A DNA stretch of 5,360 bases from a virus (taxonomy: Duplodnaviria; Heunggongvirae; Uroviricota; Caudoviricetes), in IMG/VR virus record IMGVR_UViG_2654587571_000011; one strand, written 5' to 3'. The notes under the pieces were generated by a model. That model was not told the origin of the DNA and did no database searches. It saw nothing but the letters and a program-made list of their open reading frames with translations. Every line of letters starts with the position of its first letter. Positions within the stretch are counted from its first letter, which is position 1. Below are positions 1,044 to 2,481 of this stretch, in pieces. The translations under genes were made by a program, and so were the position numbers.

Positions 1044-1289
1044 ATGCTTCAAATGTTAACTCTTGAAGAATGGGCTTCTGAAAAATACAGAAGTAATCCT
1101 CCAAGCGTTTCCACGTTGCGTCGTTATGCTAAGCAGAATTTGTTTTGTCCACCGGCAATGAAACAAGGTCGGTTATGGCGAGTGCGTGAGGACGCCGAGT
1201 TAGTTGGAGAGCTGGTAACACCAGTAATTAAGAAAAATGACTCATTACTTTTGCAACGGATTTTGAGTGATGGCAGCCAGACCGCGTAA
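1044..1289 (+). CDS. xis: Excisionase, lambda Xis family
   Basis: Strong RBS AAGGTG (1031-1036) seven nt before the ATG at 1044. The 81-aa product (MLQMLTLEEWASEKYRS...STLRRY...PPAMKQGR...) aligns by eye with lambda Xis as I recall it (MYLTLQEWNARQRRPRSLETVRRWVRECRIFPPPVKDGREY...). Sits immediately upstream of int and overlaps it, as in lambda. Confidence 0.85.
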   Translation: MLQMLTLEEWASEKYRSNPPSVSTLRRYAKQNLFCPPAMKQGRLWRVREDAELVGELVTPVIKKNDSLLLQRILSDGSQTA

Positions 1290-2397
1290 GAATAATGTTT
1301 CAGTCCCTAACTTATATCCGCTTTATAGCCGAAAGGTAAATAAAGTCTATTGGCGGTATAAGCATCCAATAACAGGGAAATTCCATGCTTTGGGAACAAA
1401 CGAAGCTGAAGCTATCGCTATTGCCACTGAAGCCAATACGCGCCTGGCTGAACAAAGAACCCGGCAGATTCTGGCCATCAGTGACAGGATCGCAACCAGC
1501 AAAGGGAAAGCAATCACAACGTCAACTTGGTTAGATCGCTATCAAGCGATCCAGAATGACAGGCTGAAAAGTGGTGATATAAAGCTCAACACCTACAAGC
1601 AGAAAGCCAAACCTGTCTCCTTACTTAGAGAACGGGCAGGATTGAAGCTAATTTCAGCTGTTGATGTCCGGGATATTGCACAATTACTTGATGAGTATAT
1701 TGCCGCTGGGCAACCGAGAATGGCACAAGTAGTTCGATCCGTCCTGATTGATGTTTTCAAAGAGGCGCAGCACTACGGAGAAGTACCTCCTGGCTATAAC
1801 CCTGCATTAGCTACTAAACAGCCAAGAAGAAAAATTACCCGACAACGGCTGAGCCTCGAAGAATGGAAAAAAATATTCGATATCGCAGATGCCAGCCATC
1901 GTTACATGGGAAATGCCATGCTGCTAGCCTTGGTTACTGGTCAGCGGTTAGGTGATATTTCACGTATGAAATTTAGCGATATTTGGGATGATCATCTTCA
2001 TGTCGTACAAGAAAAGACAGGGAGCAAAATCGCAATTCCGCTTTCTCTTCGCCTCAATGCGATTAACTGGAGTTTACGTGATGTAGTAGCTCGCTGCCGT
2101 GACTATGCAGTCAGCCCATACTTAGTGCATTTTTTCCGTTCAACTTCGCAGGCAGAACGTGGAGCACAGGTAAAATCCAATACATTGACGATGAATTTTA
2201 GTAAAGCAAGAGATTTAGCAGAAATTAACTGGGGGGAAGGTTCACCTGCCACATTCCATGAGCAACGATCTTTATCTGAACGCCTTTACAAGGAACAGGG
2301 ATTAGATACACAAAAACTACTTGGTCACAAAACACAGCAACAAACCGATCGTTATCATGATGACCGTGGGAAAGGCTGGAGCAAAGTAGCTTTGTGA
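1267..2397 (+). CDS. int: Site-specific tyrosine integrase, lambda Int family
   Basis: 376-aa ORF (GTG at 1267, first ATG at 1270) ending TGA at 2395-2397. Collinear similarity to lambda Int from memory: PNLY near the N-terminus, WLDRY, LVTGQRLGD (Arg I), KTGSKIAIP (Lys), FHEQRSLSERLY (His-x-x-Arg), LLGHK (His II) and RYHDDRG (catalytic Tyr). The 23-bp overlap with xis equals the lambda xis/int overlap. Confidence 0.93.
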   Translation: MMAARPRKNNVSVPNLYPLYSRKVNKVYWRYKHPITGKFHALGTNEAEAIAIATEANTRLAEQRTRQILAISDRIATSKGKAITTSTWLDRYQAIQNDRLKSGDIKLNTYKQKAKPVSLLRERAGLKLISAVDVRDIAQLLDEYIAAGQPRMAQVVRSVLIDVFKEAQHYGEVPPGYNPALATKQPRRKITRQRLSLEEWKKIFDIADASHRYMGNAMLLALVTGQRLGDISRMKFSDIWDDHLHVVQEKTGSKIAIPLSLRLNAINWSLRDVVARCRDYAVSPYLVHFFRSTSQAERGAQVKSNTLTMNFSKARDLAEINWGEGSPATFHEQRSLSERLYKEQGLDTQKLLGHKTQQQTDRYHDDRGKGWSKVAL

Positions 2398-2399
2398 AA

Positions 2400-2417
2400 A
2401 TTCAAGCGATTCAACGC
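2400..2417 (+). repeat. Tandem 9-bp direct repeat ATTCAAGCG / ATTCAACGC directly after the int stop; a related CTTCAAACA at 2449-2457
   Basis: Direct reading. In lambda-type elements the att P' arm with tandem Int arm-type sites lies just downstream of int, so the position is suggestive; the motif does not match the lambda arm-site consensus, so function is unproven. Confidence 0.3.
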
Positions 2418-2457
2418 CATCTTGATTTTCTTAACACTCATGAAAAAGCTTCAAACA

Positions 2458-2481
2458 GTCCGCTTAGAGCGAGAAGCGGAC
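2458..2481. repeat. Perfect hairpin GTCCGCTT-agagcgag-AAGCGGAC (8-bp stem) in the convergent gap between int and the 309-aa gene; possible terminator for the minus-strand gene
   Basis: Inverted repeat read directly. On the minus strand the hairpin is followed by TGTTTGAAGCTTTTT (plus 2443-2457); on the plus strand it is followed by ATTAAAATC. A related copy of the same stem sequence occurs at 3729-3752. Confidence 0.35.

Follow-up and report, generated by a model that had tools for sequence, protein, structure and literature searches.

The 5,360-nt stretch of viral DNA IMGVR_UViG_2654587571_000011, the whole of which is referred to here as the window, encodes an excisionase (Xis) and a lambda-family tyrosine integrase (Int). 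We consider it about 90% probable that the window represents the integrase-side end of a lambdoid prophage of the e14 family, which inserts into icd, the isocitrate dehydrogenase gene. A first-pass annotation of the same DNA had placed a candidate attachment (att) region directly downstream of int. However, in the nearest relatives the crossover lies inside icd, near the window-equivalent position 6030. This places it beyond the window, ~3.63 kb from the int stop, and the arm-type candidates of the relatives lie ~3.37 kb past this stop. With att ~3.6 kb past int, a prediction of att from the int position alone therefore misplaces the element boundary by 3.6 kb, and the rule that att follows int does not hold for the e14 family. 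The attachment of e14 in icd has been known since 1988-89, and the IntE/XisE pair of the e14 family is an already known recombination module. What is mildly new is only the cargo cassette and the view of the interval between int and att as a swappable slot. A further useful outcome is the anatomy of attP, with a triple TTTTGATAAC candidate in a phage-21-type geometry with a different motif.

Prophage Context in the Nearest Relatives

A megablast search of 5,426 complete E. coli genomes returned two near-complete matches to the window. Positions 1-5297 are 100% identical to PS1Thumoskin9 (NZ_CP180607), and positions 98-5297 are 99.8% identical to TUM9868 (NZ_CP128923). In both genomes, icd is occupied by a lambdoid prophage whose int end corresponds to the matching segment, with the gene order portal, terminase, lysis, antiterminator, replication, repressor, ECs1072, xisE, intE, a gene for a 309-aa protein, a gene for a HEPN/Toprim-associated protein, a 59-aa open reading frame (ORF) and icd. 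The far prophage end in TUM9868 carries pinE, mcrA and a 168-nt icd 3' pseudogene adjoining iraM, which is the arrangement of K-12 e14. The exact 445-aa HEPN/Toprim protein was found in the order int-cargo-icd in all contexts recovered.

The statement that no other phage genes accompany the module needs qualification, since an ECs1072-family ORF at 116-550 (NF033230, PHROG 5286) and a frameshifted ymfH-like ORF precede xis within the window. The wider genome context leads further in the same direction: in the nearest genomes, the lambdoid prophage runs on past IS3 (repressor, replication, lysis, terminase, portal), so that the module belongs to a larger prophage continuing beyond the insertion sequence. 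Such a continuation and a mapping of att elsewhere are two findings that the first-pass annotation itself had named as refuting its reading, and both were obtained in these relatives. The suggestion of a defence islet held in part. The genes after int are indeed cargo, as are lit, ymfE and ymfD in K-12, but this cargo lies inside a prophage, between int and attL.

A reduced e14-type remnant was also observed in locus L014 (GCA_024380315.1, 2788-13195), where mcrA, pinE and tail-fibre genes abut ECs1072-xis-int-cargo-icd. From this gene order, the recombination module and the cargo have been retained there while the phage core was lost. In the phage collection, no free phage carrying the int of the window was found, the sole match, vB_EcoM-689R6, being a prophage prediction that includes host flanks.

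Identity and Integrity of the xis-int Pair

Both genes were recognized by profile and structure-based comparisons. Xis (1044-1289) matches the Pfam family Exc (PF07825, 6.4e-12) and the PHROG 629 excisionase (4.3e-31), and matches the Xis structures of lambda and HK022 at 4e-5. Int (1270-2397) matches the full Arm-DNA-bind_1 model over residues 1-73 (PF09003, 4.8e-37) and Phage_integrase (PF00589, 1.9e-17), and can be aligned end to end with lambda Int structures (1z1b, 3e-56). The amino-acid identity of Xis is 97.5% to K-12 XisE and 37.5% to lambda Xis, and that of Int is 97.1% to K-12 IntE and 36.5% to lambda Int. Such a xis-int module is carried by 503 of the 5,426 complete genomes.

The first-pass annotation had described both genes as intact, with all integrase catalytic residues present, and careful comparison bears this out. 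Neither xis nor int contains a frameshift or an internal stop, and alignment to lambda Int revealed no catalytic substitution: the lambda residues R212/K235/H308/R311/H333/Y342 correspond to R226/K249/H330/R333/H353/Y362, i.e., the full R-K-H-R-H-Y set. In contrast, the "lambda-identical 23-bp overlap" of the two genes was a misreading. The overlap in lambda is indeed 23 nt; however, an overlap of this length in the window requires a start at GTG 1267, which is GTA in K-12 e14. Because K-12 e14 keeps the ATG at 1270, the conserved overlap, counted from this ATG, is 20 nt in both elements.

Int and Xis are thus predicted from their sequences to be active in recombination, and the earlier opinion that the module may still function remains reasonable, given the 97% identity to the K-12 e14 pair, which a passage of PMC13626634 reports to excise. 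In that passage, which cites Brody et al. 1985 and Hill et al. 1989, the excision of e14 is described as occurring on SOS induction.

Location of the Attachment Sites

The att sites were located by alignment of attL and attR, i.e., the icd side and the icdC side of the prophage. This alignment comprises ~215 nt of diverged homology between the phage-supplied copy of the icd 3' end and the original. The homology ends at ...CCCATATGGCGCAGCAT, with unrelated sequence beyond, and the crossover falls at ...ATGGCGCAGCAT inside icd. In a K-12-like element, a phage-type single-nucleotide polymorphism reduces the final block in common to TGGCGCAGCAT. The relatives have both att sites intact. When the bacterial sides are joined, the resulting predicted attB is found contiguous, with a query coverage of at least 80%, in 3,030 of the 5,426 genomes. 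Comparison with empty-site genomes, which had been suggested as a means of defining the core att sequence, thus leads to icd and not to the sequence after int. A search of the phage collection with the predicted attP junction returned only matches to icd fragments, in phage-21-type phages. The icd gene is well known as a site for prophages (PMC10111431), and e14 uses it while supplying a replacement 3' end (PMC6379469).

Beside the icd terminator, three tandem TTTTGATAA(C) arm-type candidates are found in seven loci that carry five different cargo sets. A fourth TTTTGATAA candidate is located at the opposite end of the prophage, within the P arm of attR. The 9-mer TTTTGATAA occurs only four times in the 45 kb of locus L001 and not at all in the window, so that in the attP of related prophages the core is flanked by three candidate sites in the P' arm and one in the P arm, none of them within the window. 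From their position, their repetition and the parallel with phage 1H12 discussed below, we infer that the TTTTGATAAC repeats are candidate arm-type Int sites of the e14 family. On these candidate sites, the e14 layout may be read as the layout of phage 21 and lambda in which a slot for cargo has opened, separating int from the P' arm. The 11-bp core and the arm specificity of 21 and e14 are taken as background, together with the alignments made here.

A recombination scheme can be proposed on this basis. Int and Xis would act in trans on att sites outside the window, with Xis serving as the directionality factor for excision. As located in the nearest relatives, attL arises from the crossover within icd (...CCCATATGGCGCAGCAT|) and includes a phage-supplied substitute for the final ~165 nt of this gene, and attR lies beside the icdC fragment, adjoining iraM, with one further candidate arm-type site. 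In this family, an ancestral layout, in which att came right after int, would have been split by the cargo, whose slot separates the int stop from the P' arm.

A separate observation concerns an e14-free K-12 derivative, AG100 (NZ_LN832404; locus L012, ~720-890), in which icd, annotated with a length of 1,335 nt, contains an 84-nt tandem duplication at att. This duplication could be a by-product of e14 excision or an assembly artefact.

Layout of the Window

The features of the window are as follows.

1-99, minus strand: IS3 left end, comprising the left inverted repeat (IRL) and the start of orfA, reading leftward; 64-nt perfect inverted repeat with 5297-5360, IS3 transposase annotation in NZ_CP180607
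116-550, minus strand: prophage gene for an ECs1072-family phage-associated protein of 144 aa (NCBIfam NF033230, 1.7e-46; PHROG 5286, 1.5e-90)
694-1013, plus strand: ymfH-like ORF, frameshifted relative to K-12 YmfH (tblastn with K-12 YmfH)
1044-1289, plus strand: xis, XisE-type excisionase of 81 aa (Pfam Exc, PHROG 629, Xis structures)
1270-2397, plus strand: int, IntE-type lambda-family tyrosine integrase of 375 aa (PF09003, PF00589, lambda Int structure 1z1b)
2398-2482, no strand: spacer after int and end of the int module (homology to K-12 e14 and TUM1880)
2400-2417, plus strand: ATTCAAGCG/ATTCAACGC, a chance-level 6-nt repeat (shuffles, real windows, relatives)
2458-2481, no strand: hairpin with a perfect 8-bp stem, placed where the int and 309-aa genes converge (inverted-repeat scan, folding z-scores)
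2458-5296, no strand: cargo cassette, 2,904 nt in full, ending ~65 nt beyond the IS3 insertion point
2611-3540, minus strand: cargo gene for a 309-aa protein with a hydrophobic N-terminus (99 unnamed homologues)
3922-5259, plus strand: cargo gene for a HEPN/Toprim-associated protein of 445 aa with a C-terminal Toprim-like fold (PF18871 at the N-terminus)
5297-5360, plus strand: second IS3 left end (IRL), reading rightward and cutting the 59-aa ORF (64-nt inverted repeat)

The ECs1072-family gene occupies an identical position in all related prophages examined. The match of K-12 YmfH to the ymfH-like ORF runs in frame 1 over 694-852 and then in frame 3 over 864-1001, and the ORF is flagged as frameshifted by the Prokaryotic Genome Annotation Pipeline (PGAP) in every related prophage examined.

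The Sequence Directly After int

Between the int stop and the 309-aa gene lies a spacer of 213 nt, in which two elements had been put forward as att features, namely, tandem repeats at 2400-2417 and a perfect hairpin at 2458-2481. The former does not qualify. The "tandem repeat" is a 6-nt exact repeat (ATTCAA), and a comparable repeat arises in 8.9% of shuffles of the 85-nt stretch and is present in 10 of 63 real 85-nt windows. A repeat-finding run on the window did not report 2400-2417. The repeat is not preserved in K-12 e14 or TUM1880 and is absent from H22 and 689R6, showing that it is neither above chance level nor conserved in relatives.

The hairpin is real, with arms GTCCGCTT/AAGCGGAC at 2458-2465/2474-2481 forming a perfect 8-bp stem and folding z-scores of -2.9 (plus strand) and -3.4 (minus strand). 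It is one of five perfect hairpins of at least 8 bp in the window, compared to 0.83 expected in shuffles. Downstream of int, K-12 e14 and TUM1880 conserve this hairpin in part, whereas H22 and 689R6 lack it, and therefore it is not required for integration. A terminator scan of 2300-3950 found none, and the hairpin hence cannot be called a canonical intrinsic terminator. On the minus strand, a T-rich tract follows the hairpin, and it is plausible that it serves as the terminator of the minus-strand 309-aa gene.

The surrounding homologies assign the hairpin a place other than att. Related sequence for the spacer 2398-2482 is present 3' of int in K-12 e14 and TUM1880 and missing in H22 and 689R6, whose divergence begins no later than the stop codon. 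Other e14-type prophages lose their homology at differing points within 2373-2485, the end points at the hairpin being 2470-2485, and homology to a cassette in the PSJ-22 island begins at 2458, at the hairpin. As judged from these alignments, the hairpin is the boundary of the int module and the cargo cassette. Thus, of the earlier claim, the hairpin itself stands, whereas an att role does not.

Weighing of the Prophage Reading and Its Alternatives

Several points weigh against the assignment of the window to an icd-inserted e14-type prophage. The right-hand IS3 junction is absent from the 5,426 complete genomes, and the linkage of the window to icd and to the prophage is therefore taken from its near-identical relatives. 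The icd insertion, with its phage-supplied 3' end and icdC fragment, is seen in the 100% and 99.8% identical relatives, and the window itself stops in IS3 before icd; similarly, the lambdoid genes beyond the int region are seen in PS1Thumoskin9 and TUM9868, and the window stops at IS3. Both prophages are damaged, that of PS1Thumoskin9 by two IS3 insertions and that of TUM9868 by an IS1 truncation of the tail region. The left IS3 is positioned between xis-int and the early-left region, which may reduce expression. The argument for Int binding to TTTTGATAA is drawn from position, repetition and the phage 1H12 parallel. Finally, no PADLOC model matched the 309-aa or the 445-aa protein.

The placement of att in the ~85-210 nt after int, with the repeat and the hairpin as its features and flanking non-phage DNA beyond, is extremely unlikely. 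It would agree with the lambda core, which lies 74 nt past int, and with the arm sites of phage 1H12, which start ~12 nt after the int stop, and the loss of homology to e14-type prophages at 2373-2485 superficially resembles an element boundary. However, no core-like sequence (TGGCGCAGCAT with up to 2 mismatches) or arm-like sequence (TTTTGATAA with up to 1 mismatch) is found in 2398-2610, the sequence of 2398-2482 does not recur at the other prophage end, and the repeat at 2400-2417 is at chance level. In addition, H22 and 689R6 lack the spacer and yet sit at the icd site, and the conserved P' arm with the icd 3' replacement follows every cargo variant. We also judge it very unlikely that an IS3 composite transposon carries the 5.2-kb segment as its passenger, mobilizing xis-int together with the defence cargo as an islet of its own, separate from any prophage. 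The IS3 ends at 36-99 and 5297-5360 (64 nt, 100% complementary) do form a perfect inverted repeat that bounds the window with both IRL inward, and the right-hand junction occurs in no complete E. coli genome. However, compared with TUM9868, where the prophage is uninterrupted, the left IS3 of PS1Thumoskin9 shows a 3-bp target duplication (GTT) of its own and hence represents a simple insertion into the prophage, which continues on the other side. On the right, related genomes continue at 5297 with the 59-aa ORF and then icd, all recovered contexts of the exact HEPN/Toprim protein have the order int-cargo-icd, and no IS3-bounded unit was found at another locus among the genomes matched. A composite transposon of two IS3 copies is thus possible but unsupported, and both IS3 ends are secondary, later insertions.

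A more serious alternative, although one that we still regard as doubtful, is that xis-int is a dead remnant, intact in appearance and no longer expressed or able to excise, in a region kept as fixed DNA for its cargo. The damage to the nearest prophages through IS3 and IS1 insertions and tail-gene truncation, the position of IS3 between xis-int and the early-left region, and the reduced remnant in L014, in which mcrA, pinE and tail-fibre genes adjoin ECs1072-xis-int-cargo-icd, are all consistent with this view. On the other hand, the xis and int ORFs are intact and encode proteins 97% identical to those of K-12 e14, both att sites are intact in relatives, and K-12 e14, which is itself defective, is reported in the same passage of PMC13626634 to excise on SOS induction and in evolution experiments.

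Comparison with e14, Lambda and Phage 21

Among the closest known systems to the e14-type prophage end described here is K-12 e14 (intE b1140, xisE b1141), with which it shares, besides the near-identical Int (97.1%) and Xis (97.5%), the 20-nt overlap. In the relatives of the window, the attachment in icd with a replacement icd 3' end, icdC beside iraM, a cargo between int and attL, and mcrA and pinE at the far end are likewise as in K-12 e14. We note several differences. The cargo consists of the 309-aa and HEPN/Toprim genes here, whereas it is lit-ymfE-ymfD in K-12. Upstream, an ECs1072-family gene takes the place of ymfI/ymfJ, and IS3 insertions are present here. Moreover, the nearest relatives of the window keep many more phage genes than K-12 e14.

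The similarity to lambda extends to the arm-binding, core-binding and catalytic domains of Int with all catalytic residues, to the Xis fold family, and to a xis gene that precedes and overlaps int. The P' arm of lambda has three sites, P'1-P'3, and three tandem P' arm candidates are found here as well. However, the sequence identities to lambda are low (36.5% for Int, 37.5% for Xis), the overlap is 20 nt rather than 23 nt, and the arm motif is different. Furthermore, the core is ~3.6 kb from int, compared to 74 nt in lambda, and the crossover is in a protein-coding gene with a long identity block.

Phage 21-type elements, represented by the free lambdoid Escherichia phage 1H12 (NC_049947), have the same attB region in icd, an icd 3' homologue, and arm sites at -266, -253, ~-242 and +119 from the crossover. 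The Int of 1H12 is 59% identical, its arm motif is TTTTGGGGAA in contrast to TTTTGATAAC, and no cargo separates int from the P' arm, the sites lying ~12 nt past the int stop. The arm-site geometry common to the e14-type and 1H12-type attP can be seen in loci L001 (25764-25796), L007 (23595) and L011 (3950-3984 and 4335), and the two motifs, TTTTGATAAC in the e14 type and TTTTGGGGAA in the 1H12 type, would represent a naturally switched arm specificity on one attB.

Cargo Slot and Cargo Proteins

The interval between int and icd holds different genes in different e14-type prophages. It contains lit-ymfE-ymfD in K-12 and 1297KP, a DUF2357 protein plus an 848-aa protein in H22, hypothetical genes and fragments of insertion sequences in TUM1880, a DUF262 protein plus a hypothetical protein in 689R6, and the 309-aa and HEPN/Toprim pair in PS1Thumoskin9 and TUM9868. 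The interval thus holds lit in K-12 and mostly defence-like sets elsewhere. From 2458 on, the cassette of the window matches part of the island of strain PSJ-22 (L002 12001-14904) at 99.76% identity across 2,904 nt; this unrelated island adjoins hipBA and has two other site-specific integrases. The match points to a recent transfer of the cassette between distinct mobile elements, its left border being the hairpin.

The genes of the cassette probably constitute anti-phage or accessory cargo, and a role of the cargo in defence may be inferred. A stronger version, in which the interval from the int stop to the P' arm is a dedicated slot for cassette exchange, the hairpin is the joining signal and the cassette, with a membrane-anchored 309-aa protein and a stand-alone HEPN/Toprim-associated protein, is a putative anti-phage system, appears improbable to us. 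The slot resembles the P2/P4 hotspots (PMC9122126, PMC13586616) in that a fixed backbone position receives interchangeable sets, several of them of defence type; the defence-type genes of the e14 slot include lit, DUF262, DUF2357 and the Toprim-fold protein, and the cassette recurs at 99.76% identity in an unrelated island. It differs from them in its backbone, which is an e14-type lambdoid prophage, and in its position between int and the P' arm of att. The literature searches did not return any paper that explicitly describes a defence hotspot at icd/e14.

The N-terminus of the 445-aa protein matches PF18871, a family for which no mention was found in the literature searched. For its C-terminal half, Pfam gave only a sub-threshold match to Toprim_2. 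An AlphaFold model built with 36 homologues is confident, with a predicted local distance difference test score (pLDDT) of 90.2, and E240, D301, D303 and E305 are invariant. In this model, the protein would adopt a Toprim fold with the conserved acidic residues (E and DxD) of such enzymes. The 986 homologues of this protein stand by themselves, at the ends of prophages and in islands, beside varying restriction-like or ATPase genes. The predicted Toprim fold with E and DxD is shared with the effectors of OLD, PARIS AriB and retron Eco2, whereas, unlike in these systems, no conserved ATPase partner was seen among the varying neighbours and no PADLOC match was obtained. The HEPN/Toprim-associated protein, an uncharacterised protein with a Toprim-like fold, is a candidate for a stand-alone defence nuclease.

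The 309-aa protein has 99 homologues across Gammaproteobacteria, all unnamed, and no domain was detected in it by Pfam, PADLOC, NCBIfam, PHROG or PDB-sequence searches; for the 445-aa protein, the NCBIfam, PHROG and PDB-sequence searches likewise gave no match. A defence or accessory function as cargo is plausible for both proteins. An obligate partnership of the 309-aa protein with the HEPN/Toprim protein was considered and rejected because homologues have other neighbours. In E. coli, though not in other genera, the 309-aa gene accompanies the HEPN/Toprim gene. The 59-aa ORF (L001 25287-25466) follows the HEPN/Toprim gene, with its 3' end cut by the right-hand IS3 at 5297. It also follows an 87%-identical Citrobacter homologue (L023 7366-7545), and only its C-terminal part is present in the PSJ-22 island.

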